Positions 1,178 through 64,000 of a stretch of DNA of 64,000 nt are shown one piece after another. The stretch comes from Octopus vulgaris. Lineage: Eukaryota. The translations under genes and the position numbers were made by a program. The notes beneath the pieces were generated by a model. It made no database searches. It was not told the DNA's origin and was given only the letters and a program-made list of their open reading frames with translations. Positions within the stretch are counted from its first letter, which is position 1; every line of letters begins with the position of its first letter. Location of the stretch: contig OX597821.1 in the NCBI GenBank assembly GCA_951406725.2, positions 37,076,001-37,140,000 on the forward strand, given 5' to 3'.

Positions 1178-1324
1178 AGATATTATTTGTGTGTTTGAAT
1201 TTGGATGGATGGATTGATGGATTGACGGATGGATGGATGGATAATTATTGGTTTAAAACAAAATGCCCGTTAGAAATTATCTGTGTTTGAATTTGTATGG
1301 ATGGATGGATGGATGGACAGATGG

Positions 1325-1358
<34 letters not shown>

Positions 1359-4300
1359 AATTAATAGTTTAAAACAAAATACCTGTTAGAAATTGTTTGT
1401 GTGTTTGAATTTGGATGGATGGATTGATGCATGGATGAATGGATGGATGGATGAATAATTATTAGTTTAAAACAAAATGCCTATTAGAAATTATTTGTGT
1501 GTTTGAATTTGGATGGATGGATTGATGAATGGATGGATGGATGGATGGATAATTATTAGTTTAAAACAAAATGCCTATTAGAAATTATTTGTGTGTTTGA
1601 ATTTGGATGGATGGATTGATGCATGGATGGATGGATGGATAATTATTAGCTTAAAACAAAATGCCTATTAGAAATTATTTGTGTGTTTGAATTTGGATGG
1701 ATGGATTAATGCATGGATGGATGGATGGATGGAAGGGTGGATGGATGGATAATTATTAGTTTAAAACAAAATGCCTATTAGAAATTATGTGTGTTTGAAT
1801 TTGGATGGATGGATTAATGCATGGATGGATTGATGGATGGATGGATTGATGGATAGATGGATGGACAGATGGATTATTATTAGTTTAAAACAAAATGCCT
1901 GTTAGAAATTATTTGTGTGTTTGAATTTGGATGGATGGATGGATGGATGGATAATTATTAGTTTAAAACAAAATGCCTATTAGAAATTATTTGTGTGTTT
2001 GAATTTGGATGGATGGATTGATGCATGGATGGATGGATAATTATTAGTTTAAAACAAAATGCCTGTTAGAAATTATTTGTGTGTTTGAATTTGGATAGAT
2101 GGATGGATGGATGGATGGATGAATGGATGGATTGATGGATAGATGGATGGAAGGATGGATGGATTGATGGATAATTATTAGTTTCAATCAAAATGCTGAT
2201 TAGAAATTATTTCTGTATTTGAATTTGGATGGATGGATGGATGGATTGATGGATGGATAATTATTAGTTTAAAACAAAATGCCTATTAGAAATTATTTGT
2301 ATGCTTGAATTTGGATGGATGGATTAATGCATGATGCATGGATAGATTGATGGATGGATAATTATTAGCTTACAACAAAATGCCCATTAGAAAATATATG
2401 TGTTTGAATTTGTATGGATGGATGGATGAATGGATAATTATTAGTTTAAAACAAAGTGCCTGTTAGAAATTATTTGTGTGTTTGAATTTGGATGGATGGA
2501 TAATTATTAGTTTAAAACAAAATGCCTATTAGAAATTATTTGTGTGTTTGAATTTGGATGGATGGATTAATGCATGTATGGATTGATGGATGGATGGATG
2601 GATGGAGGGAGGGATAATTATTAGTTTAAAACAAAATGCCTATTAGAAATTATTTGTGTGTTTGAATTTGGATGGATTGATGGATAGATGGATGGATGGA
2701 TGGACAGATGGATTATTATTAGTTTAAAACAAAATGCCTGTTAGAAATTATTTGTGTGTTTGAATTTGGATGGATGGATGGATGGATGGATGGATGGATG
2801 GATAATTATTAGTTTAAAACAAAATGCCTATTAGAAATTATTTGTGTGTTTGAATTTGTATGGATGGATGGATTGATGGATAGATGGATGCATGGATGGA
2901 TGGATGGATAATTATTAGTTTAAAACAAAATGCCTGTTAGAAATTATTTGTGTGTTTGAATTTGGATGGATGGATGGATGGATTGATGGATAGATGGATG
3001 GATGGATGGATAATTATTAGTTTCAATCAAAATGCTGATTAGAAATTATTTCTGTGTTTGAATTTGGATGGATGGATTGATGGATGGATCAATTGATAGA
3101 TGGATGGATGGATGGATGGATTGATGGATGGATAATTATTAGTTTAAAACAAAATGCCTATTAGAAATTATTTGTGTGCTTGAATTTGGATGGATGGATT
3201 AATGTATGATGCATGGATACATGGATGGATGGATAATTATTAGCTTACAACAAAATGCCCATTAGAAAATATATGTGTTTGAATTTGTATGGATGAATGG
3301 ATAATTATTAGTTTAAAACAAAATGCCTGTTAGAAATTATTTGTGTGTTTGAATTTGGATGGATGGATTGATGCATGGATGGATGGATGGATGGATGGAT
3401 GGATGGATGGATAATTATTAGTTTAAAACAAAATGCCTATTAGAAATTATTTGTGTGTTTGAATTTGGATGGATGGATTGATGGATGGATGGATAATTAT
3501 TAGTTTAAAACAAAATGCCTATTAGAAATTATTTGTGTGTTTGAATTTGGATGGATGGATTAATGCATGGATGGATTGATGGATGGAGGGAGGGATGGAG
3601 GGAGGGAGGGATAATTATTAGTTTAAAACAAAATGCCTATTAGAAATTATTTGTGTGTTTGAATTTGGATGGATGGATGGATAATTATTAGTTTAAAACA
3701 AAATGCCTATTAGAAATTATTTGTGTGTTTGAATTTGTATGGATGGATGGATTGATGGATAGATGGATGCATGGATGGATGGATGGATAATTATTAGTTT
3801 AAAACAAAATGCCTGTTAGAAATTATTTGTGTGTTTGAATTTGGATAGATAGATGGATGGATGGATTGATGGATAGATGGATGGAAGGATGGATGGATGG
3901 ATGGATAATTAATAGTTTCAATCAAAATTCCTATTAGAAATTATTTCTGTGTTTGAATTTGGATGGATGGATTGATGGATAGATGGATGGAAGGATGGAT
4001 GGATTGATGGATAATTATTAGTTTCAATCAAAATGCCGATTAGAAATTATTTCTGTGTTTGAATTTGGATGGATGGATGGATCAATTGATGGATGGATGG
4101 ATGGATGGATGGACAGATGGATTATTATTAGTTTAAAACAAAATGCCTGTTAGAAATTATTTGTGTGTTTGAATTTGGATGGATGGATGGATGGATGGAA
4201 GGAAAGATGGATGGATTGATTGATGGATGGATGGATAATTATTAGTTTAAAACAAAATGCCTATTAGAAATTATTTGTGTGTTTGAATTTGGATGGATGG

Positions 4301-4788
4301 ATGGATTGATGGATAGATGGATGCATGGATGGATGGATGGATAATTATTAGTTTAAAACAAAATGCCTGTTAGAAATTATTTGTGTGTTTGAATTTGGAT
4401 GGATGGATTGATGGATAGATGGATGGATTGATGGATGGATGGATAATTATTAGTTTAAAACAAAATGCCTATTAGAAATTATTTGTGTGCTTGAATTTGG
4501 ATGGATGGATTAATGCATGATGCATGGATAGATGGATGGATGGATAATTATTAGCTTAAAACAAAATGCCCATTAGAAAATATATGTGTTTGAATTTGTA
4601 TGGATGGATGAATGGATAATTATTAGTTTAAAACAAAATACCTGTTAGAAATTATGTGTGTGTTTGAATTTGGATGGATGGATGGATAATTATTATTTTA
4701 AAACAAAATGCCTATTAGAAATTATTTGTGTGTTTGAATTTGGATGGATGGATGCATGCATGGATGAATGGATGGATGGATTGATGGA
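1178..4788. repeat. Composite satellite: 56-bp AT-rich core plus variable (GGAT)n spacer, roughly 40 units
   Basis: The core ataattattagtttaaaacaaaatgcctattagaaattatttgtgtgtttgaattt alternates with GGAT runs of variable length. Variant monomers recur at 2180/3020 and 2367/3242/4553. Confidence 0.95.
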
Positions 4789-5290
4789 TCTCACCCTATC
4801 TCCGCCTATCTCACTCTATCTCCGCCTATCTCAGTCTATCTCACTCTCTCCCAGGTGTTTTAACACCCAGCATTATTGGGAAATCTCCCAAAATGCTATT
4901 CCGCTAATCTCCGGCTATCTCCGGCAATCTCCGGAAAACTCTTGCAATGTCCGGCAAACTGCACCAATCTCCTGCAAACTCCGGTAATCTCCAGGAAATT
5001 CCGCCAAACTCTGGATATCTCCGCCAATCTCACTCTTATCTCCACCTATCTCACTCTATATCCGTCTATCTTACTCTATCTCTGCCTATCTCACTCTATC
5101 TCACTCTCCCAGGTGTCTTAACACCCAGCATTATTGGGAAATCTCCCAAACTGCTATTCCACCTATTTCCGGATATCTCCAGCAATCTCCGTCTTTGTAC
5201 AGCAATCTCTAGTAGTCTCCGGTAAACTTCGGCAATCTCCGGCAAACACTGGCAATCTCCGGCAAACTCCTCCAATCTCTATCCCCGCCT
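4789..5290. repeat. Degenerate ~10-bp subrepeat block (ctatctcact / ggcaatctcc) duplicated with a ~260-bp period
   Basis: cccaggtgt.taacacccagcattattgggaaatctcccaaa occurs at ~4850 and ~5108, each time preceded by CTATCTC repeats and followed by GGCAATCTCC repeats. Confidence 0.8.
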
Positions 5291-5292
5291 AA

Positions 5293-7560
5293 CGGGTGTT
5301 GTGCGTGTTCTTTACCTCCGCCGGTTTAAGGCTAGGGTTTAGGTTTAGAGAATGTTACGCCGAAAACGAGTGGTATGCGTGTTCTTTACCTCTGCCTGGT
5401 TAGAGTTAAGGTTACGCCGAAAACGGGTGGTGTGCGTGTTCTTTACCTCCTTGGGTTTAGGGTTACAATTTAGGGTTAGAAAATGTTACGCCGAAAACGG
5501 TTGGTATGCCTGTTCTTTACCTCTGTTTGGTTAGAGTTAAGATTACGCCGAAAACGGCGTGTTCTTTACCTCTGCCTGGTCTGGGTTAAGGTTTTGCATA
5601 AAACGGGTGGTGGGCGTATTCTTTACCTACGCCGAAAACGGGTGGTGTGTGTGTTCTTTACCTCTGCTTGGTTAGATTAAGGTTACGCCAAAAACGGTTG
5701 GTGTGCGTGTTCTTTACCTCCCTTGGTTTAGGGTTAGAGAAGGTTATGCCGAAAATGGGTGGTATGCCTGTTCTTTACCTCTGCCTGGTTAGGATTTAGG
5801 TTACGCCTAAAATGTGTGATGTGCCTGTTCTTTACCACTGTGTGTTAGCATTTCTGTTTAGGGTTAGATTTTAAGGTTAAGCCGAAAACGGGTGGTGTGT
5901 GTGTTCTTTACCACCGTGTGTTAGCGTTTGTGTTTAGGGTTAGGTTTAAGGTTATGCCAAAAGCGGGTGGGGTGCATATTCTTTAACTCCTCCGGGTTAG
6001 GATTTGGGTTCAGGTTTAGAGAATGTTACGCCGAAAACGTGTGCTGTGCGTGTTCTTTACCTCCGCTGGTGTAGGGCTAGGTTTTAGGTTTAGATAATGT
6101 TACGCCGAAAACGGCGTGTTCTTTACCTCTGACTAGTTAGAGTTAAGGTTACGCCTAAAACGGGTGGTGTGCATGTTCTTTACCACCGTGTGTTGGCGTT
6201 AGTGTTTAGGGTTAGATTTTAAGGTTACGCCTAAAACATGTAGTGTGCGTATTCTTTACCTCCGCCGGGTTAGGATTTGGGTTTAGGGTTAGAGAAGGTT
6301 ACGCCGAAAACGGGTGGTGTGCGTGTTCTTTACTTCTGCTTGGTTAGAATTAAGGTTACGCCGAAAACGGGTGGTGTGCGTGTTCTTTACCTCTGCTTGG
6401 TTAGAGTGAAGGTTACGCCGAAAACGGGTGGTGAGCGTGTTCTTTACCTCCACCGGTTTAGGATTAGGGTTTAGGGTTAGAGAAGGTTACGCCGAAAACG
6501 GGTGGTGTGCGTGTTCTTTACCTCTGCTTGGTTAGATTAAGATTATGCCGAAAACGGTTGGTGTGCGTGTTCTTTACCTCCATTGGTTTAGGGTTAGGCT
6601 TTAGGGTTAGAGAATGTTACGCCGAATAATGGGTGGTATGCCTGTTCTTTACCTCTGCCTGTTGAACTTAAGCCGAAAACGGGTGGTGTGTGTGTGTTCT
6701 TTACCACCGTGTGTTAGCGTTTGTGTTTAGGGTTAGGTTTAAGGTTACGCCAAAAACGGGTGGGGTGCGTATTCTTTAACTCCTCCGGGTTAGGATTTGG
6801 GTTTAGGTTTAGAGAATGTTACGCCGAAAACGTGTGCTGTGCGTGTTCTTTACCTCCGCCGGTGTAGGGCTAGGGTTTAGGTTTAGAGAATGTTACGCCG
6901 AAAACGTGTGCTGTGCGTGTTCTTTACCTCCGCCGGTGTAGGGCTAGGGTTTAGGTTTAGAGAATGTTACGGCGTGTTCTTTACCTCTGACTAGTTAGAG
7001 TTATGGTTACGCCTAAAATGGGTGGTGTGCATGTTCTTTACCACCGTGTGTTGGCGTTAGTGTTTAGGGTTAGATTTTAAGGTTACGCCGTAAATGGGTG
7101 GTGTGCATGTACTTTACCACCGTGTGTTAACTTTGGTGTTTAAGGTTAGATTTAAGGTTACGCCTAAAACATGTAGTGTGTGTATTCTTTACCTCCGCCG
7201 GGTTAGGATTTGGGTTTAGGGTTAGAGAAGGTTACGCCGAAAACGGGTGGTGTGCGTGTTCTTTACTTCTGCTTGGTTAGAATTAAGGTTACGCCGAAAA
7301 CGGGTGGTGTGCGTGTTCTTTACCTCTGCTTGGTTAGAGTGAAGGTTACGCCGAAAACGGGTGGTGATCGTGTTCTTTACCTCCGCCGGTATAGGATTAG
7401 GGTTTAGGGTTAGAGAAGGTTACGCCGAAAACGGGTGGTGTGCGTGTTCTTTACCTCCGCCGGGTTAGGATTAGGGTTTAGGGTTAGAGAAGGTTACGCC
7501 AAAAACGGGTGGTGTGCGTGTTCTTTTCCTCCGTGGGTTAGCGTTAGGGTTTAGGTTTAG
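5293..7560 (+). repeat. Satellite with ~39-bp core and degenerate telomere-like (TTAGGG) spacers, left part
   Basis: The core gttacgccgaaaacgggtggtgtgcgtgttctttacctc repeats every ~60-75 bp, separated by ggttaggattagggtttagggttag-type spacers. There is a 933-bp higher-order duplication (6277 vs 7210). Confidence 0.93.
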
Positions 7561-12342: not shown

Positions 12343-12697
12343 TTTAGACTTAAGGTTACGCCGAAAACGGTTGTTGTGCGTATTCTTTACCTCCGCCGGG
12401 TTACGGTTTAAAGTTAGAGTTAAGGTTACGCCGAAAACGGGTGGTGTGCGTGCCCTTTACCTCCGCCGGTTTAGTGTTACGTCTTAGGGTTAGAGAAGGT
12501 TGCGCCGAAAACGGGTGGTGTGAGTGTTTTTTGCCTCCGTGGGTTAGCGTTAGTGTTTAGGGTTAGATATAAGGTTACGCCGAAAACGGGTGGTGTGCGT
12601 ATTGTTTACCTCCGCCGGGTTAGGGTTAGGGTTTAGGTTTAGGCGTAAACTTAACTCTAAGTTTACGTTAGGGTTAGGGTTTAGAGTTACGTTTACC
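12343..12697 (+). repeat. Telomere-like satellite, right part (resumes after the Gypsy insertion)
   Basis: Same ggttacgccgaaaacgggtggtgtgcgt core, with perfect TTAGGG units at ~12620-12631 and ~12668-12679. Confidence 0.9.
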
Positions 12698-12780
12698 CTT
12701 GAAATTATCTTTTTACCCGAGCAGAAATGTAATTAACAACCTTGGTAACAGTTTGCATCACTTCCTGAAGTTTTTTCCGA

Positions 12781-31064: not shown

Positions 31065-31874
31065 ATGGTTAGCAAGCTACTTTTTTTTAAGCCCAAGGTC
31101 AAATTTAATCCAAGCATACTCATAATCAAAGATGAATCATATTTGTATCTACACATCCAATATACCCCAATATTTTTTTTGCCATGAGTTGCTAATGTGT
31201 GATTTAAGGAAAAGTTACCTAACTTTTGTAGCAAGATCAATGACCATACAGAGACTTCGTTATTGTTGTTGTGTTATGTTGCGTTGTGCTGTGTTGTGTT
31301 GTGTGTGTGTGTGTGTGTCTGTGTAAATATATATACGTCTGTGTGTGTGTATGTATACACACACACATTATATATATATATGGCAAGAGAGAGAGAGAAG
31401 CTGAAAATATTTTTCAGATTTTTGTGTATTTATATACACGTGCAATTTGACTGAATTTCTCATTCCATCAATGGATAAGCCGAAAAAATATAATTTTAAT
31501 TTCAAATCCTAGTACACCATTTTATACATTAAATCATAAAATAATAATTTTATAAACAAAAACTATAGCATAAAACAGAAAATGGTAATAACAAATCTAT
31601 ATACAATCTACCAACCAGAAATAGAGGGTAAAATAAGTAGTTAAGTTTCAGTTTCAGTAATTTTAACCTTATCTATACACATACATAATACATACGGATA
31701 AACATAGATAGCTTAATACATAGAAAAATGCCATTGCACTAGGAGAACACAATGCAAATATTAAACTAACCGTGCAGTAAGAAATAATGTATATAGATGT
31801 GTAGTCACAACAGATAAAAATAAATATTACTCTATAGGGACTAGTCCATGCGTTATAAAACAAAGAACAGTCAG

Positions 31875-32255
31875 TCATGAAAGTTCGTTTTGTAATAATA
31901 CTAGAAAATTTTCAACAAATCTTAGCAAGCTTAGTAAGGAGCTAGAGTCTGAAGATGGAAAGGTATCACCAATATCAAAGCATAAAAGGCATTCTAAATG
32001 CTTAGAAATTTTCAGAACACCTGAATTTATCCAGCAAGTTCAACAGATAATGATTACAATCCCAGAAAGTCCATGAGGTAAATTACAAAAGATCTCCATG
32101 TGTCAGTAGGAACAACCAGAAGGGTTGTCCATGAAGACATCAGATATAAGTCTTACATGATGAAGAAAGGCCAATTTGTCAGAAAAAAACAAAAGAAAAT
32201 CACTACATCTGATCTAAAAGGCTCTTAAAACTGAAAAATCCAGCAGAAGATTTGA
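31875..32255 (+). mobile_element. Tc1/mariner-superfamily (DD37D/maT-like) transposase N-terminal fragment
   Basis: Degenerate HTH-type peptide RTPEFIQQVQQI..NPRKSMR..KDLHVSVGTTRRVVHEDIRYKSY. Confidence 0.6.
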
Positions 32256-46564: not shown

Positions 46565-49500
46565 AAACCGAAAAGACTCATACTCCACCTCCAAAAACCC
46601 ATACACTACACCCAACTTTCACCAACCAGCACCAACACCAACAACAAAGTCAACACAGTCGGAAATAGACCCCAATACACTTCCCCTCCCACCTTCAGAT
46701 TCCTCTGACGTCATCAGATGAAGACGACACAGAGGATTGCCAAATAGCCACAGGGGGGAGGAGAAAAGGAGGAGAAAGAATAGAGAAGCAGACAAACAAA
46801 GCAGGGAGGTTTACCACTCCCGAAACTAAAACATCCGCATTGAACAAACACATCAACACAAACACACTATCACCAAACCCCGCAACAATGTTGACAGCCA
46901 TAAACACCAACAACACCGACCTAATGGATTACATTAGGTCAAACACCAACATAACCGAAAATGATACCAAAACAAAGAACCACCCATGCACAACACCACC
47001 ACAACACGTTAAAATCATACACATAACTCAGAACACACACAGCACCCTAAAATCCCTCAACCCTGATGCAGTTGGGAGATTTCAAAAGTATTTGTCAAAA
47101 AAACTGTATAAAAACCATCTGGGAGAAGACTGTGAAGTGAAGAATAAAGAACTTTCGGACAGTAAGTGACTCTCTCTCTCTCTCTCTCTTTTCATCTTCT
47201 TTCATGTGTAAAACACAACTTCGATAGGAATGTGCTCAAAATAGGCAGTATAAATGTACGTGGCTTGGGGTCGCCTTGGAAACAAGGCTACCTGTTAAAC
47301 GACATCAAGTCACAAAATCTGCATATCATAGCCATCAGCGAGACCAGACTCCACAGCCCACGGGCATTCCAGCACATGTTCGGCACACATTTCGACATTT
47401 ATTTTTCTCCGTGTCTACCGAGAATGGGCAGAGGTGGCACCACAGTGCTTTTCCGGAAGAGTCTGGACCTCAAAGTGAGAGCGATTTTCCTAGACATGGA
47501 GGGTAGGCTGGTCATCTTGGATGTCGATGGCAGCAATGAGTGCTTTTCGACTGATAACAGTTTATGCACCATCCTTAACAGACCGGCCAGATTTCTTTCG
47601 ACGTCTAGAAGTCTTCCTGGGAATGTCTCGACCTTTACTTTTAGTGGGGGATTGGACACGCATCTAGACTACGTGGGCAGAGATAGTAATAGGAGGAGGT
47701 ACAAACGTCTCAAAAACCTGCTCAGACGTTTCCAATTATCTGACAGGTACCGACTGGACCACCCGAATGTGCCAATGTGGACATGGAGCAACCGCATCAG
47801 GTCGTCCAGATCGTACTTAGATAGAGTATTCTGTATGACAGTAGATAAAGATAGTGTAGGTTGTCCACAATTCCATATAGTCAGCTACACAGACCACAAA
47901 TTTGTGACTTGTACACTTGACTTAGATAAGACACATAGGCAGGGTCCTGGTTACTGGAAGCTGAACGCGTCTTTCACGGCACGCTAGGCTTACAGGGACC
48001 GGATTAGCACATTAGTAAAGAGAGCTTTCACGGGTGCCATCATCAACAACAGATGGTGGTATGCTCTAAAGAAAGCAATTAAAGCAGAATCGGTTAGGTA
48101 CAGTAAGGCAGTAGACTGAAATAGAATAGAGGGAGACTTAGGAATTTAAAAGAGGCACTTAGAACTGGCATCACGTCCAACGTACTGGCAGCGAGGTTGG
48201 CCCTCGACCAACACCTCAACGCCAAACACGAAGGATGCGTTGTCAGAGCTAGGATGCGTGCTCTGAGGAACGAAGGAGTTGGAGCCGCCCGAGTGGTGGA
48301 GACGCAACGAGGCAACAGAGCCACCATCAGGTCACTTACAGATGAACAGGGGCGCGAATTACTCGAGCCTGAAAGGATGTGTGAGGCTTTCAACAACACT
48401 TTACCCAACTGTTTGGGACAAGTGATGGGTCAGAATGCAGAGTGGACTTTAGTGCCTACCTGCATGCCCTACCACGACTCTCAGCAAGAGAGACGGAGTG
48501 TTGTGAAAAACCCATCACAGCCGCAGACGTACGGGATGCGAGGGCAGGCTGCGCAAGAGACAAGTCACCAGGCTTGGCTAGTCTGCCCTGCGAAGTTTAT
48601 TGTCATATGCCAGACTTGTTTGGAGACGTCTTGGCAGCTGTCTACTGCAACTGGCAGCAAAAGGGAGTATCTCCGCCTTTGTAAAGCAAGGAGCAGTGGC
48701 ACTGCTAAAGAAAGATCCAAACAAAGGGGACGTCATAGATAATTTCAGGCTCATCACTCTGCTCAACGCAGATTTGAAAATTTTGGCCAAGATGTTAGCC
48801 GAGAGGTTGACACTTGTCATCGAGAAACTAGTCGACAAGGCGCAAACGTGCGCCGTGCCAGGTAGGAGTATCCATGACGACCTCCATCTGATGCGTTACA
48901 TCATAGACAGGGTAGTTAAGGATCCTGGCATGGGTGGGGTGCTGATCAATTTAGATCAATCAAAAACCTTCGATAGGGTAGACTATCACTACTTAGAGGC
49001 TGTCCTTAAAGCAGCTGGTTTCGGTCCCATCTTCCACGGTTGGATCGCTGCCTTATACAGCGGCATCTACTCGGTAGTTCGCGTAAATGGTCATCTATCC
49101 AGACCTTTTAACATCATGCGTTCGGTTCGACAAGAATGCCCCCTCTCATCGCTTCTGTATGTATTGACTCTTGAACCACGACTGCGGAAACTGGCGACGC
49201 TGAGAGGCATCCCACGAGAGCTGGGATGCTGGAGGAGCGTGTCTGCATACGCGGACGACGTCACCGTTATAGTGTCGAGCCACAAGCACATCGACCTGGT
49301 CGGCGAGACACTAAAAGAATACGAAGCAGTAACGGGAGCAAAAATTAACCGGGAAAAGTCAGTGGGCTTGCGGCTCGGCACCTGGAGAAGCAAACCCATG
49401 CCGTTCAACAGCGTCTCCATTGTGGGACACTGGACCGACGGACCGGTTAAATTGCTCGGAGTCTGGTTCAGTCCGGACCTCCAAATGGAGAAGAACTGGA

Positions 49501-49820
49501 GCGAAATAACGACTAGGGTGGCCACTCTCACCCAGCAATGGCCTGAGAAGAACCTATCCCTAAAAGGTTGGGCGGAGGTGGCGTCTGAGCGTCGTGCCTT
49601 GTCTTAACCCTACCATCACCAAACTGGAACGCATACTCTTCTGCCTCCTGTGGAAGGGAAGTGTTCCGATGGTTGGGCGATCCATTTGCTGTCAACACCC
49701 GCTAAATGGAGTGCTAGGCATGCCATGGTTGATGATGCGCAGACATGCACTGAGACTGCGACATCTCCAGCGCTTCATAGACGACGGTGAACAGGTGTGG
49801 TCGCCTTTTGTGCGACGCGA
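46565..49820 (+). mobile_element. Tx1/L1-clade LINE, degenerate (ORF1 tail, APE, RT)
   Basis: IGSINVRGL, ISETRL, YLDR, YTDH, LDQSKTFDRV and AYADD motifs, with several frameshifts. Confidence 0.9.
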
Positions 49821-50373: not shown

Positions 50374-50428
50374 AAAACCCCTGTATGGAGAAATAATATG
50401 CAATACAAGGCGAAGCTGAAAATAGTAA

Positions 50429-50464
<36 letters not shown>

Positions 50465-50786
50465 GCAAATTTTCGACCGAGGATCAAAGGGACAATACTA
50501 ATACTACTAATAATAGTAATAATAATAAATAATAAACAGCTCAACCACAACATTAGATTAGAAAGACTCTCTTATCTTGGGAACATTTCGTTCTTCTGCC
50601 TGACACGGGAATATGACGGGCTGGCTTAAAAATGCTCTTAGCAAAGGAAGAGGCGGGATGGCAGACAACGTAAAAGAGGGAGAGAGAGAAGGGAAATAGT
50701 GGAACCCCGCGAAAATGGGCCGCCATTGAAAAAAACCCCTGTATGGAGAAATAATATGCAATACAAGGCGAAGCTGAAAATAGTAA

Positions 50787-50822
<36 letters not shown>

Positions 50823-51144
50823 GCAAATTTTCGACCGAGGATCAAAGGGACAATACTAATACTACTAATAATAGTAATAATAATAAATAATAAACAGCTC
50901 AACCACAACATTAGATTAGAAAGACTCTCTTATCTTGGGAACATTTCGTTCTTCTGCCTGACACGGGAATATGACGGGCTGGCTTAAAAATGCTCTTAGC
51001 AAAGGAAGAGGGGGGATGGCAGACAACGTAAAAGAGGGAGAGAGAGAAGGGAAATAGTGGAACCCCGCGAAAATGGGCCGCCATTGAAAAAAACCCCTGT
51101 ATGGAGAAATAATATGCAATACAAGGCGAAGCTGAAAATAGTAA

Positions 51145-51180
<36 letters not shown>

Positions 51181-51343
51181 GCAAATTTTCGACCGAGGAT
51201 CAAAGGGACAATACTAATACTACTAATAATAGTAATAATAATAAATAATAAACAGCTCAACCACTGCCTGACACAACATTAGATTAGAAAGACTCTCTTA
51301 TCTTGGGAACATTTCGTTCTTCTGCCTGACACGGGAATATGAC
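50374..51343. repeat. 358-bp tandem repeat, about 2.7 near-identical units visible
   Basis: Identical spurious ORFs at 50558/50916 and 50699/51057 give the period of 358. Each unit includes two (TAA)n tracts. Confidence 0.93.
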
Positions 51344-51363: not shown

Positions 51364-51910
51364 AGCACAAAGTGAGATAGGGGTTATGAGTGTAACCCAC
51401 TATGGGATATCAGTTATCCAATATACTACTAGTGAAGTGCCCAAAAGGCAAATACATAAATGCTTATAATTGCAATGCAATTAATTCATTTATTGTATTA
51501 GATGGGCGAAGGTAAAATATTTTACCTCAAATTCATAATACAAATAAGAAAATGGAGGAACAGATTCCTTTCAATCATCGACTTACAGATAATACCAATT
51601 CATATTATTTATTAACTACTTAAAAAGGAACATCCAAATCCAACAGAATAAAATAATATACATCAATAAGTAAGATAATACCATAAAAATAATACATATA
51701 AAATGGATCTTACAGCTGTTTCAGCCTGTAGATAAAAGTATCTCATTGTGCCTATATTAGTTAGATGTATTGAGGTAATATATTGATGTATATTGTTTTA
51801 TTCTGTTGGATTTGGATGTTCCTTTTTAAGTAGTTAATAAATAATATGAATTGGTATTATCTGTAAGTCGATGATTGAAAGGAATCTGTTCCTCCATTTT
51901 CTTATTTGTA
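51364..51910 (-). mobile_element. Penelope-like element terminal (pLTR) fragment with inverted duplication
   Basis: Homologous to 60421 onward. A half hammerhead GAAACAGCTGTA lies at 51711-51722 (-). ~130-bp inverted arms at 51539-51668 and 51781-51910. Confidence 0.75.
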
Positions 51911-51916
51911 TATGTA

Positions 51917-54233
51917 TATTGTGTCTGCATGGATGATGGGGCACTTGCTTTTACTGTTAGTGAAAAGAAAGAGGCTTGGAGAAGCCATTATGAAAGACTG
52001 CTGAATGAGGAGAATGAATGGGAGGAGGAGAGCCTGCCAAATGTTGACCCAGTAGAGGGACCAGCTACCCGAATAGACAGCTCCCTTGTAGTTAAGGCAA
52101 TTAAGGATATGAAACCAGGTAATGCCCCCGGCCCATCAGGAATCACTGCTGAGATGCTTAAAACAGCTGGCTATGAGGGCTATGGCCTAGTCACCCGCAT
52201 TGTAAACGAGGTAGTTCATAATGGAGTCATACCCAATGACTGACGTAGCAGCACCATAGTCAACTGCTACAAGGGTAAGGGTGATGCTCTAGATAGAAAT
52301 AACTACAGGGGTATCAAACTGTTGGATAAGGTGATGAAGGTCACAGAGAGGGTCATAACCCATCTCATTAGAGAGAGAATTTGCTTAGATGAAATGCAGT
52401 TCGGTTTTGTGCCGGGTAGAAGCACCACTGATGCTATATTCCTGGTCCAACAACTGCAGAAGTACCTAGCTAAAGATAAACCCCTCTACATAGCTTTTGT
52501 GGACTTGGAGAAAGCCTTTGACAGGGTTCCCCATTCCCTTATCTGGTGGTCGATGCAGAAACTGGAGATTGACGAATGGCTAATAAGGGCTGTACAGGCT
52601 CTATACAGAGAGGCTGTCAGCAAGGTTAGGATTGGCAACGAATATAGTGAAGAATTTCGGGTAGAAGTAGGTGTGCACCAAGGCTCAGCCCTCAGTCCCC
52701 TTTTATTCATCATAGTCCTCCAGGCAATAACAGAGGAATTCAAAACAGGATGCCCCTGGGAGCTCCTCTATGCTGATGACCTGGCTCTCATAGCAGAATC
52801 ACTACCGGAACTAGAAAAGAAATTTCGGGTGTGGAAGCAAGGGTTAGAATCAAAGGGCCTTAGAGTAAATGTAGCAAAGACCAAAGTTACAGTAAGCAGA
52901 AAGGCGAACTCAGCACACACCCACTCGGGCAGGTGGCCCTGCTCGATCTGTAGGAAAGGTGTAGGTAGAAACTCCATAAGATGCACCCAATGTAAGCTAT
53001 GAACGCACAAGAGGTGCGGCAACATTAAAGGGAAATTAACAGATAAGATAGCTTTCATGTGCGGCAGATGCACAGGGACAATAGACACCACAGACACTCA
53101 GAAAACAGATTCCATCACACTCCAGGGAGAGAAACTAGAAGTAGTTGATAGTTTCCGCTAAATGGGTGACCAAGTCAGTAGTGGAGGTGGATGCACAGAG
53201 AGTATCACCACTAGAATACGAATAGCCTGGGCAAAGTTCAGAAAGCTCCTACCCCTACTGGCGACAAAGGGTCTCTCCCTCAGAGCGAAAGGTAGATGTG
53301 CGAACTGCCATGCTTCACGGCAGTGAAACATGGGCTGTGACTGCAGAGGACATGCGTAGACTTGAAAGAAATGAAGCTAGCATGATCCGCTGGATGTGTA
53401 ATGTCAGTGTGCACGCACAACAGAGTGTAAGCACCCTGAGAGAAATGCTGGATATAAGAAGCATCAGATGTGGTGTGCAAGAGCGACGCTTGCGATGGTA
53501 TGGTCATGTGCTGCGGATGGATGAGGAGAGATGTGTGAAGAAGCGCCACTCCCAAACAGTTGAAGGTATCAGGGGGAGAGGTAAACCCAGGAAGTCATGG
53601 GATGAGGTAGTCAAGCATGACCTCAAAGCGTTGGGCCTCACTGAGGCAATGGCAAAGGACCGAGATCTCTAGAGATATGCTGTGACTGCAAAGACCCGGG
53701 CTGCTTCCTGCATCAGTTCCACATAGCCCCTGCCCATTCAAAGTACCCCGGATCCCAGAACGTCCCGCTGTGCTTGAGGAGACCTGTTGAGTCAAGTACA
53801 TGAACATGAACGTCGAAATAAATATCAATGGAAATAGTAGTTGTGATGCCTGTGCCGGTGGCACATAAAAAGCACTATCCGAACGTTGCCGATGCCAGCG
53901 CCGCCCCGACTGGCTCCTGTGCCGGTGGCACATAAAAAGACCATCCGAACGTTGCCAGCGCCGCCTTAGCTGGCTTCCGTCCCGCTGGCACGTTAAAAGC
54001 TCCAGCCGATCGTGACCGATGCCGGACCCCCCCCCCTCTGGCACCTGTGCAGGTGGCACGTAAAAAGCACCCACTACACTCGCGGAGTGGTTGGTGTTAG
54101 GAAGGGTATCCAGCCGTAGAAACTCTGCCAGATCAGACTGGAGCCTGGAGCAGCCCCTGGCTTCCCAGACCCCGGTCGAACCGTCCAACCCGTGCTAGCG
54201 CGGAAAACGGACGTTAAACGATGATGATGATGA
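51917..54233 (+). mobile_element. RTE-clade LINE, 5'-truncated, with intact 3' UTR and (GAT)n tail
   Basis: APGPSG, NYRGIKL, QFGFVPGRSTTDAIF, DLEKAFD, HQGSALSP, YADD and RLRWYGHV motifs. The tail ttgg.gttaggaaggg.atccagccgtagaaa...gatgatgat is present. Confidence 0.93.
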
Positions 54234-58629: not shown

Positions 58630-60420
<1,791 letters not shown>

Positions 60421-60794
60421 AGGTTATAAAATGAGATAGGGGTTGAAAATTCAACCCACCATGGGATAATATATATCCAATATACTGCTAGATAAGTACC
60501 CAACAAAATTAATACATAGATGTTAAAGAATTGTCAAACAATCAGTTCATCTATTGTATTATATGGGTGAAGGTAATAATATTACCGTAAATTAATACTA
60601 CAAAATTAGAGAATGGAGAAACATACTTAAATCAGTAAAACATCAACTATCCGATGATACTCAATCCATACTTTAATACACCATTACATATGAGTAAAGG
60701 CAATATATAAAATGAAATGAGATATACAGTAATAGTAAAAAGATAAAGAGATATAAGTAAAAAATTTTTTCAAATATAATATACAAATAAATCA

Positions 60795-60909
60795 GAACTG
60801 ACAGCTGTTTCGGCAGTGAGGACAGTCATACCTCATTTAACCTATAAGCCATAAAGGCAGGTATAAATGAGGCATTAACAAGGATGCCCCACGGCCTCTT
60901 CAGAGAATT
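60795..60909 (-). ncRNA. Type I hammerhead ribozyme-like motif with extended stem II
   Basis: The reverse complement reads CU-CUGAAGA-GGC...(long hairpin)...GCC-GAAA-CAGCUG-UC-AG. Stem III is palindromic (ACAGCUGU) and the cleavage triplet is GUC. Stem I is weak. Confidence 0.7.
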
Positions 60910-61253
60910 AAATTAAATTTGTTATAATAGTGAAAAATATTATATAATCATATACATATAAATATAAAAATATAAAAATGTAAAATATAAAAACTTATAC
61001 ATCATAATGCTACACTTATATAATATAATACACATTTGTACAAAAAAGGAAGGTAAACAGAACAAAATAAAACAAAATATATAACAGTGTATATATTAAT
61101 ATTAATAAGTACCGATATTATACATATTTGTCTAATAGTTTTTTTTATAAAAAAAAAAAAAAAAGGCTAACACATATGGAGATGAAAAATAATAATTAAA
61201 TCCGTGGTACAGTTCATAAAATTCTAAAGCTATAAAAGTTAATAAAAATTACT

Positions 61254-61323
<70 letters not shown>

Positions 61324-63052
61324 TAATAAAAATAGATACAGTTAAGTTAGCAACAAGTCCATCCTTTCAAGATCGAAATAACTATGAGTTAAGAAATGCT
61401 GACCACTAGGTAAAGAAAATTTAGATTAATTCGATTGGCTATTGGTTTGAAATTTAAAACACAAAAGAAAATTATACGGTTGGTTAGTCAGGGAACGCCA
61501 ATATTCACACACGCATCTACAGATCAATCGCACATACACACATAGTTATATGTATATACATACACTTATACACATACATAAGCAACAACTAGCACTTAGA
61601 TAAACAAAAAGGGAAGCAACTATGTTATCATTTAGTCCTTCAAAATTATAACTGTGCCTTAATAACAAAAAAAGAACCATCCATGCATTCCATAAAATAT
61701 TTAATTTAGATATAAATATATTTTTAGATATCAGTATGTTACTAATTCAGATAATTATTTCATGGGTAACTTAAAATTTATAACACCGGTTTGTTGCATA
61801 GTAAACATACGGTTGTTAGATTTATCGTAAGTTTGTTATGATTTTAAGTACGCTAAATTATAAAATATAAAATATAAAATATATATTAATTTAAATATTA
61901 TAAATAAGTCACTTATTAACTTAATAAATATAGTGCCATAATATACCAGTTTAGGCATTAAAGAATAGAAGGGGAAGTATTAATGTAAACGCTTATGAGA
62001 ACATCACAGAAATTTTAAATAAATTTTATATTATAAAGACTTAAGATGAAAAGAGATAAAATAAATAAGAAGGAATAAATACGAAGGAATAAATACGGTT
62101 GTACACATAATTATAAGTACAAACCAGTATATATGTATTTATATATTATTAAAATTAAATAAAATAAATGATAGATATGTATGTATAAAACTACCTCAGT
62201 ATAAGTAAATAAGTAAAAAATAAATAGGTAACAAATTAGATGCCTTGATATTTATGTAAACATCTACACTTAAATAGGCAAATAAATAAATAAATAGAAG
62301 ACTAGATGCAAAGATTGATAATATTACAATAAAATGGAAAATAAATAAAAAATAAATAAAGTGAATATATATGTTATATTGTTGAAAGTAAATATGTATG
62401 GAAGGATAGTTTAAAGTACAGATCCAGAGGACTATAGATATAAACTAAATATATGAGGCTGGTAATAATTATAAAGCAAAATGCATGTAAATGAGAAAAT
62501 GAAAAAAAAAAATGAAAAAAATGAAAAAGGTTTATCAGTGAATATCATAAGATACAAATTAAGGTGAGTACAAAAAGACCAAATATACAATAAAAAATAC
62601 AATAAAAACCTTCCAAATAAACACATACAAAAAACCTATAATCTCAACCTAAACCCACCAAACTCACAAAAGGCTCTCATATATTACATATTATACAATA
62701 TCATTACATTATCCAAAGCTAGGTATCTAACCAAGATATATATAAATATACTATGCAATATACTATGCAATATTGGAAAACTTCAAAAATCACACATTAC
62801 AAGGCAAATACCAAAATGAATATGCTATTTTATGTCATATTGCATTTCTCTTAAAAAACAAACAAAAACCCACATACAAAAACAAGAAACCAATATTACT
62901 AGACACATCCATTAATTATTATACAAATGTAGCTATAAAAATTATAAAATTATAAAATTTATAAATTGTATACTTTAGAATTATAGAAGACCACAGGTAT
63001 ATTTAGTTAAAGAAGGGAATTAAAAAATTAATAATAGTGGAAGTGCTAAGTT

Positions 63053-63890
63053 CTATTTGAATCTAGAAAAGGTGAACGGTAGCCTATGAATACAAAAGAA
63101 GTTTTTTTCATTAATGTTGTTAATAATTTGCCGACCCGCTTTAATAATGAAGAAAATTTCATTAATACATAGAGAGCATTTTTTATTTTTTCCATTATAC
63201 ACAGGTGCTGAAGTTAGTATTTTCCAGTTTAATCTAAAATCTAAGTTCTTACTTTTAAGTTCCCAAATGTATGCACTTAGCCCTGTAGAGTATATTCTAT
63301 TTTTATTCCTAAAAGTATATCTGTGATAATTCCATCTTTGTTTTATGCTATTCATAGTTGCCCCGATATACACCCTACTACTCAATTGTGTATCTACAGT
63401 GCATTGGTAAACTACCTCCTTCCTGAGGCATTGATTACCAAATACACATTTATTTCTATTTCTGAAATTACAAAGATTAACAGAATGAGGAAATCTAAGA
63501 TTGGACACCACCCCTATACTACTATTCATATTATAAGTGTTACAATTGTTATCATCATCCAAACCCAAAATCAACGAATGAGTTAATTTCACATTATCGG
63601 CTATATTCCTATCACTAGTACTAGTATTGGTAGTAGTAGTATGATCTATTACATTTATATTATCTCTGACAGGTATGGTGCACTCATTATTAGTAAGGAG
63701 GTTGTTCCCATTTGTTCCAAGAAAGTTTCTATTCCTATTATTAATGAAGAGGGGCAAGTTTTCCTGGTCTAAATTCAATTTTCTATCCTTATAGAAGTGA
63801 TCCAGTTTCTTGTTATTAAAAGAGGAGATAATGGTGGCTAGATTATGAGTAATGCTATATCCCACTCTAACAGTACCGTTGTTAATTAAA
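63053..63890 (-). CDS. C-terminal part of PLE ORF with GIY-YIG endonuclease
   Basis: C..CVFGNQCL..VVYQC...VYIGAT...KQRWNYH...LSAYIWELK...WKIL...CSLCINE...CIH. It is truncated upstream by the inversion. Confidence 0.85.
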
Positions 63891-64000
63891 GGACTGATTT
63901 ATTTGTATATTATATTTGAAAATTTTTTACTTATATCTCTTTATCTTTTTACTATTACTGTATATCTCATTTCATTTTATATATTGCCTTTACTCATATG

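Follow-up and report, generated by a model that had tools for sequence, protein, structure and literature searches.

The window analysed here, a 64,000-nt stretch of the Octopus vulgaris genome (contig OX597821.1, forward-strand positions 37,076,001 to 37,140,000), contains the ends of two diverged Penelope-like elements (PLEs), both of which carry the same multi-stem RNA motif (51372-51526 and 60432-60586). The motif is a real, selected RNA structure, beyond chance, and represents the PLE tail, bracketed exactly by the two points, site 1 and site 2, where genomic copies of the element end. It is a known kind of feature, present here in an undescribed and much more elaborate form.

Two Hydra-clade copies in the window

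Copy 1 is a truncated 550-nt insertion of family F1 (F1 to F8 are labels made in this analysis), which lacks an open reading frame (ORF) and has lost the hammerhead except for its 3' half. The direct arm covers 51364-51781 and the inverted arm 51782-51911 on the plus strand; the latter stops at site 1 and has no tail. The other features are on the minus strand, which is the sense strand of the element. The tail (51364-51537) comprises hairpin P1 (51508-51528), the long hairpin P2 (51436-51507), the 5' arm of the long-range helix P0b (51424-51432), the partner of which is located just before the AUG in full-length copies, hairpins P3 and P4 (51377-51419), with an invariant GGAUA/UAUCC in P3, and site 2 (51364-51376), a linker at the direct end next to a short TA-rich flank. 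The base of P2 reads GCCC...GGGCACU and resembles a clade-wide GCUC...GAGCACU module. Site 1 (51535-51546) is a U-rich linker with UA at its end, where the inverted arm ends, and is adjacent to the anti-AUG strand (51547-51560), the 5' arm of the long-range helix P0a. The remaining part of the hammerhead (51711-51781) contains the GAAA, the palindromic stem III and part of stem II, the 5' half being lost by truncation.

Copy 2 belongs to family F2, and its tail is located at 60420-60594 on the minus strand, with P1 at 60572-60586, P2 at 60495-60568, the P0b arm at 60483-60491, P3 at 60464-60478, P4 at 60436-60462 and site 2 at 60420-60435. The same strand contains the site 1 linker (60593-60607), the anti-AUG strand (60608-60621) and a type I hammerhead motif (60800-60903) that was read from the sequence and has CUGAAGA, a long stem II insert, GAAA and a palindromic stem III; its predicted cut site is after 60800, and it is below the Rfam gathering score. 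An AT-rich, long 3' untranslated region (UTR; 60904-63052) and an ORF remnant (63053-63895) are also on the minus strand. The remnant corresponds to residues 668-947 of a 947-aa protein, at 98% to the full-length copy L123, and has lost one Cys of the Hydra-clade Cys motifs. The direct end is flanked by a TA-type microsatellite, the target (58630-60419), and the inverted arm (63894-64000, plus strand) extends beyond the window by about 94 nt, as far as site 1, where it meets (TA)n. With site 2 at 60420 and site 1 beyond the window, copy 2 follows the rule of one end per site described below.

The assembly (2.8 Gb, 227 contigs) was sampled by DNA, protein and pattern searches. Both copies come from large repeat families, with 2,098 and 1,641 candidates in a first-look DNA search, which are not copy numbers, and the exact P3-P4 pattern has 3,232 matches in the genome versus none for a control pattern. 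L123 contains an intact ORF of 947 aa (L123:3274-6114) for a reverse transcriptase (RT) with a C-terminal GIY-YIG domain, which aligns from end to end with 26 relatives and had no match in a Pfam search. The protein has RWR (RWK in the clade definition), DKT instead of DKG, the CxCX5C linker CNCRNKNKC, CSLC as CxxC and CIH as CxH, and no CCHH. A hammerhead is read from the sequence in the pseudo-long terminal repeat (pLTR), and the (TA)n flanks represent the target. By the sequence characters of motifs, hammerhead and (TA)n target, the host element is a Hydra-clade PLE according to the definition in PMC8557442. The ends in the window had already been read as Penelope-like, to which the clade can now be added.

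The RWR, DKT, CxCX5C linker, CxxC and CxH motifs, the lack of CCHH, the hammerhead and the (TA)n target are shared with the Hydra clade, while the host element differs in its unit of about 5.6 kb, its asparagine-rich inserts, its 2.1-kb 3' UTR and its fast-evolving lineage. The tail-to-tail distance in L123 is 5,578 nt and exceeds the usual size of Hydra-clade PLEs, which are generally shorter than 3 kb, a tendency that is not diagnostic (PMC8557442). In the available part of that paper, the hammerhead is the only RNA structure described, and Hydra-1_Obim represents a different family from the host element. Families F1-F7 were grouped with a support of 99, on long branches, in a quick tree of unnamed relatives with no named references or other clades. 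The Neptune clade, considered first, was dropped once the motifs fitted Hydra, and no relatives were found among viral contigs.

Two asparagine-rich inserts are present in the ORF of L123 (L123:3274-6114), and many of its sister copies are frameshifted, which leaves C-terminal frames of 444-496 aa. Asparagine-rich ORF inserts have been reported for bdelloid Penelope elements. A decayed GIY-YIG fragment of another Hydra-type element is located at 31720-31956 on the plus strand, with 34% identity.

The tail within a larger predicted leader fold

The five stem pairs, the GGATA/TATCC hairpin and both linkers described in the sequence-only reading are all present in the two stretches, which align with long identical blocks. 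On the minus strand, the stretches fold with z-scores of -5.0 (copy 1) and -4.0 (copy 2), and none of 200 shuffles was as good; the plus strand is weaker (-2.9 and -2.6). The distance from the hammerhead cut site to the motif, given earlier as about 200 nt, is about 185 nt in copy 1 and 213 nt in copy 2. The location at the extreme 3' end is correct for genomic copies. In full-length copies, however, the motif forms part of the 5' leader, and in L123 it is separated from the AUG by about 140 nt. Tandem copies place the hammerhead, the tail and the ORF start on one strand.

A search of the 64-kb window against Rfam gave no match at the gathering score and only chance matches at the E-value level. 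The candidate DABA-DC-AT (RF02951) was rejected, with 19.2 bits versus a gathering score of 56.1 and an E-value of 0.05 on the antisense strand. The view that the motif belongs to no known family is consistent with the Rfam result, but a corresponding feature of PLEs has been described, namely the tail bounded by two RT start sites (PMC11167929). It was also correctly noted that a selenocysteine insertion sequence (SECIS) core is lacking: the ORF is open under the standard code, the motif is in the 5' leader, there is no 3' GA partner, and the motif does not have the AUGA...GA quartet together with an ORF with in-frame UGA.

The motif noted in the window is likely just the inner portion of a more extensive fold, which is complete only where the pLTR reads on into the ORF. 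The 391-nt leader folds with a z-score of -8.4, and the predicted fold of about 340 nt is closed by two long-range helices, one of which covers the AUG. The predicted helix P0a is formed by the start-codon region and the strand that immediately precedes site 1, and the predicted helix P0b by the bases directly upstream of the AUG and the linker CAATATACT. This linker is conserved, as had been claimed, but represents one strand of a long-range helix, the partner of which is absent from the window. According to the model, P0a and P0b close two nested multiloops, with site 1 located after the anti-AUG strand and site 2 after P4, and the two end sites are predicted to be unpaired (0.28 and 0.13 versus 0.64).

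Helices P0b and P4 covary. In a sequence-only alignment of 11 leaders, in which the last helix was mis-registered, 89.8% of the cells pair, versus 36-51% in slid controls, and 17 pairs change on both sides, versus 5.2 in shuffles; in nine more divergent leaders, 95.9% of the cells pair. P0b is paired in 80 of 81 cells and has five double changes on the same branch, versus 0.41 in the tree null, while P0a has two (0.17 expected) and P4 has five (0.22 expected, 19 tails). The p-values for paired cells are inflated in this test, where the null spreads changes to inner branches, and they were not relied on. Cognate P0b duplexes have a mean of -13.2 kcal/mol versus -8.2 for swapped ones, a difference that still includes kinship between the sequences. 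On the sense strand, G-U pairs outnumber A-C pairs by 21 to 5 and by 12 to 7.

All five stems had been described as kept by compensatory changes. Double changes at the level of the tree are present in one stem, whereas the others change mostly via G-U steps, and in F1-F4 the changes in P1, P2a-d and P3 run via G-U or the stem is invariant. The GCCCA/TGGGC pair of copy 1 is a rare variant, and the change runs through wobble, because G-U is found at this position in most sister copies. Double changes do occur in the closing pairs of P1 and P2d, which were named in the earlier description and are outside the tree test.

The partner strand of F8, a family met by chance, was predicted in advance and was sought by pattern, because none of 30 F8 tail loci read into the ORF. 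The pattern gave six matches versus none, four of which are ORF starts of host elements, and in the three loci that keep the leader, one of which is F8-type, the tail arm is the complement in every case. In F6 and F7, the protein is about 47% identical, and a different anti-AUG strand of their own matches their own start region, with site 1 immediately after. These families (L193:1270-1527 and relatives) have a shorter leader, with the hammerhead directly before the anti-AUG strand and a tail of 120 nt, and they keep the two-site rule. Leaders L195/L197, L184, L185, L200 and L204 were truncated or unclear and were excluded.

These results make it hardly credible that the motif reflects inherited homology and chance hairpins in AT-rich DNA, with the long-range matches as relics of inverted repeats. 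Such an origin would be in line with the few double changes in the inner stems and with inverted arms that do join at such matches (L124), but the fold z-scores, the tree-aware double changes, the cognate-duplex comparison and the prediction of the F8 partner speak against it, and for P0b and P4 it is already largely refuted.

The distance from the hammerhead cut to the AUG is 513 nt and includes nine upstream AUGs of 1-8 codons, and the AUG is predicted to be paired in two lineages. These features would fit a fold that is mainly a translation element, resembling an internal ribosome entry site or a switch, for the uncapped hammerhead-cut RNA, in which case the end sites would be set by UA stretches alone and fall in loops. 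A role in translation is also known for the ribozyme-cut leaders of R2 retroelements. This explanation is nevertheless unlikely, as the end sites hold their place relative to the helices though the tails differ in length (170 versus 120 nt), and other Hydra elements end directly before a doubled module. A donor-like site in stem II of the hammerhead (window position 60830) and an acceptor-like site before the AUG (L123:6120) were seen by eye. The joint of a 5'-UTR intron that removes the cut site and the tail was absent from four of four contig runs, the RNA status of which was guessed, so that they provide no evidence either way; four further contig runs with other labels contained two TA-flanked ends in part and no phased variants.

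Ends of the genomic copies

The tail is about 170 nt long in F1-F5, 120 nt in F6 and F7 and about 60 nt in other Hydra elements, while known PLE tails are 30-40 nt. Relative to the ORF start, the copies end at -316..-309 and -145..-136 in F2, at about -317 and -145 in F3, at -329..-322 and about -160 in the F5 reference, and at -169 and -48 in F6 and F7. The inverted arms end 153-157 nt upstream of the last hairpin, which is the 5' edge of the motif. A census of 336 alignment ends, with loci fetched twice counted twice, included 107 at site 1, 181 at site 2, 18 elsewhere and 30 that continue into the ORF, so that 288 of the 306 ends that do not read through are at one of the two sites, in every family examined.

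The copies have one direct and one inverted arm, with the tail on exactly one of them. In 79 of 80 pairs of outward-facing ends, one end is at site 1 and the other at site 2, in both arrangements; the remaining pair belongs to L171, in which the copy extends as far as the AUG. The 80 pairs include at least two duplicates, and most of the loci were picked by the tail; pairs with both ends at site 1 could not appear at such loci, because the tail was the selection criterion. About ten pairs come from ORF-anchored loci, and all of these have one end at each site. A tail at one end in 79 of 80 pairs agrees with the optional end extension of PLEs, though not with its length of 30-40 bp. The junctions are in TA register on UA-containing stretches, with a scatter of 5-10 nt rather than at one bond. 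In most F6 copies, including the 13 with the commonest site 2 junction, the target has a T where the template has an A, which is what annealing of the primer across this position would produce.

The ends agree with a tail bounded by two RT start sites, as shown in vitro for PAc, a Poseidon-clade element from Anolis, in which two internal RT starts bound the tail without cleavage, both DNA strands are cut and extended, and a dimer is predicted (Frangieh et al. 2024, PMC11167929). That study provides a precedent for internal starts bounding the tail, for two-strand extension and for the predicted dimer. In comparison to PAc, in which the tail is 30-40 nt, AC-rich and located inside the ORF, the host tail is longer (170 nt, or 120 nt in F6), U/UA-rich and located in the 5' UTR, and it contains multiple helices that show covariation and are enclosed by long-range helices over the AUG. 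In 79 of 80 host insertions, each site accounts for one end.

The multi-helix junctions with the invariant P3 and the clustering of the ends might also suggest a second cleavage, by the RNA itself or by a protein, that yields 3' ends at both sites from which the RT starts. This is highly improbable, given that the ends spread over 5-10 nt, that no ribozyme family in Rfam is matched and that internal initiation without cleavage has been shown for another PLE (PMC11167929). Nor does anything support the second ribozyme that had been proposed, as the motif has no Rfam match to the conserved catalytic core of known self-cleaving ribozymes, and a function in 3'-end protection does not fit because the stretch lies inside the template.

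A signal that acts as DNA, with the endonuclease or a second-strand step recognising the folded single-stranded tail and resolving an intermediate at the two sites, has a precedent in the attribution of the tail to endonuclease-mediated resolution by Craig et al. and in the requirement of the tail for endonuclease recognition in D. virilis (both as cited in PMC8557442 and PMC11167929). It is very unlikely here, since the partners of P0a and P0b covary with the tail even though they are located past site 2 and thus never become part of ordinary copy ends, and since the wobble pairs favour the sense strand. The proposal of a selected cis-acting RNA tied to RT recognition or priming is instead supported by covariation across ten families, by the excess of G-U over A-C pairs on the sense strand and by the bracketing copy ends.

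Elsewhere, the window contains 2.7 near-identical 358-bp tandem units with AAT runs (50374-51343), by an assembly gap beside copy 1. Broken non-LTR retroelement ORFs with endonuclease and RT are located at 47166-49607 and 51875-53672, which we take to be Tx1/L1-like and RTE-like. A 57-76-bp minisatellite rich in TTAGGG-like words is present at 5269-7560 and 12344-12715, and a 90-98-bp repeat array at 1178-4617.

A doubled module and a proposed twin priming

To compare the leaders of Hydra-clade elements from other animals, we used 89 loci with related ORFs from metagenome and metagenome-assembled genome contigs (L301-L389). The leader is about 160 nt long and contains GCTC-N(8-19)-GAGCACT twice in 20 of 34 distinct leaders (for example, L356:260-439 and L350:120-303) and once in another seven, versus none with the doubled form in 694 ORF control windows. 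One leader has a compensated GCAC/GTGC form of the module. Eleven of 13 distinct TA-flanked ends are located 0-8 nt before a module (nine before the first and two before the second), one is 15 nt before a module and one is at the hammerhead. Among the six published Hydra consensi (PMC8557442), Hydra-1_Ajap has both modules, Hydra-2_Amil and Hydra-2_Ajap have one each, Hydra-1_Crog has a variant module, and no module is visible in Hydra-1_Amil and Hydra-1_Obim. The leaders from other animals had no match in Rfam.

In the host genome, the exact doubled module had 61 matches versus 3 for a control, and none of the 15 loci examined (20 fetched) was a Hydra leader. The exact module is absent from the host families. 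In F2, which is the active family, the best two of 91 predicted stacks in comparison with the module are the base of P2 and the inner P5, the stem that follows site 2, and both are located about 31 nt after their respective sites. The balance tips slightly towards the host leader helices being homologous to the doubled module, in a degenerate form. The literature searched, with subscription papers and Repbase notes outside the search, contained no description of a long tail with such structure, of a PLE leader that buries the AUG or of the doubled module.

It is fairly probable that the motif, as the tail of about 170 nt between the copy-end sites, forms the interior of a folded 5'-leader RNA in which two RT start sites that contain UA are single-stranded and the AUG is predicted to be buried. 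In the best reading, the leader likely serves as a scaffold for twin target-primed reverse transcription, with one start site per cut DNA strand. The endonuclease would nick both strands of the (TA)n target, and the two nicked 3' ends would anneal to UA stretches, one end at each of the two sites. Two RT active sites would copy towards the 5' end of the RNA, and the two cDNAs would be joined where copying stops, to give a direct and an inverted arm, exactly one of which has the tail. The protein may find each site via a short helix flanked on its 3' side by AC(U), which would be the doubled GCUC...GAGCACU module, degenerate in the host. Burial of the AUG might separate template use from translation, which is the weakest step of the proposal.

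Several observations weigh against the scaffold. The AUG-burying helix was not seen in any of 32 leaders from other animals, with none of the 32 ranked first versus control windows. Likeness to the module is top-ranked only in F2 and partly in F4, is mixed in decayed copies and fails for F6 and F7. P1, P2a-d and P3 have no same-branch double changes (14 tails, F1-F4), the 3' strand of P0a is partly under coding constraint, and the G-U bias is modest. All three bases of the AUG are predicted to be paired at more than 0.9 in only 10 of 14 leaders, the other four being decayed copies. Finally, the sampling by tail under-represents pairs in which both ends are at site 1. The Hydra element L382 (L382:1199-5008), from another animal, has such a pair, so that the rule of one end per site does not hold without exception in the clade.

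The scaffold proposed for the host resembles LINE-1 twin priming, in which both target strands prime and an inverted 5' arm is formed. It differs in that the position of the second start would be determined by a site in the RNA, not by internal annealing at random, and in that either site can give the long arm. In the 5' and 3' RNA motifs of R2 and in telomerase RNA, a folded RNA positions the RT at a short primer-alignment stretch. The likeness to these is in concept, and the host would have two start sites on one RNA.

More tentatively, programmed twin priming might be a property of Hydra PLEs in general, with two protein-docking modules on one leader RNA, each next to a primer-alignment stretch of its own, with an RT dimer that copies from the two simultaneously, and with the leader rebuilt in the lineage of the window as a 340-nt switch that hides the AUG during use of the RNA as template. 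If true, programmed twin priming would account for both the tail and the inverted pLTR throughout the Penelope elements. PLEs are the closest mobile relatives of telomerase, and one in vitro study has so far addressed how their tail and inverted terminal repeats arise. The case described here offers a testable cis-acting RNA, with natural compensatory variants in its helices, two start sites mapped on hundreds of copies and a rule of one end per site, as well as a short doubled motif common to the Hydra elements of many animals. The signature can be used for finding the boundaries of these elements and their non-autonomous partners.
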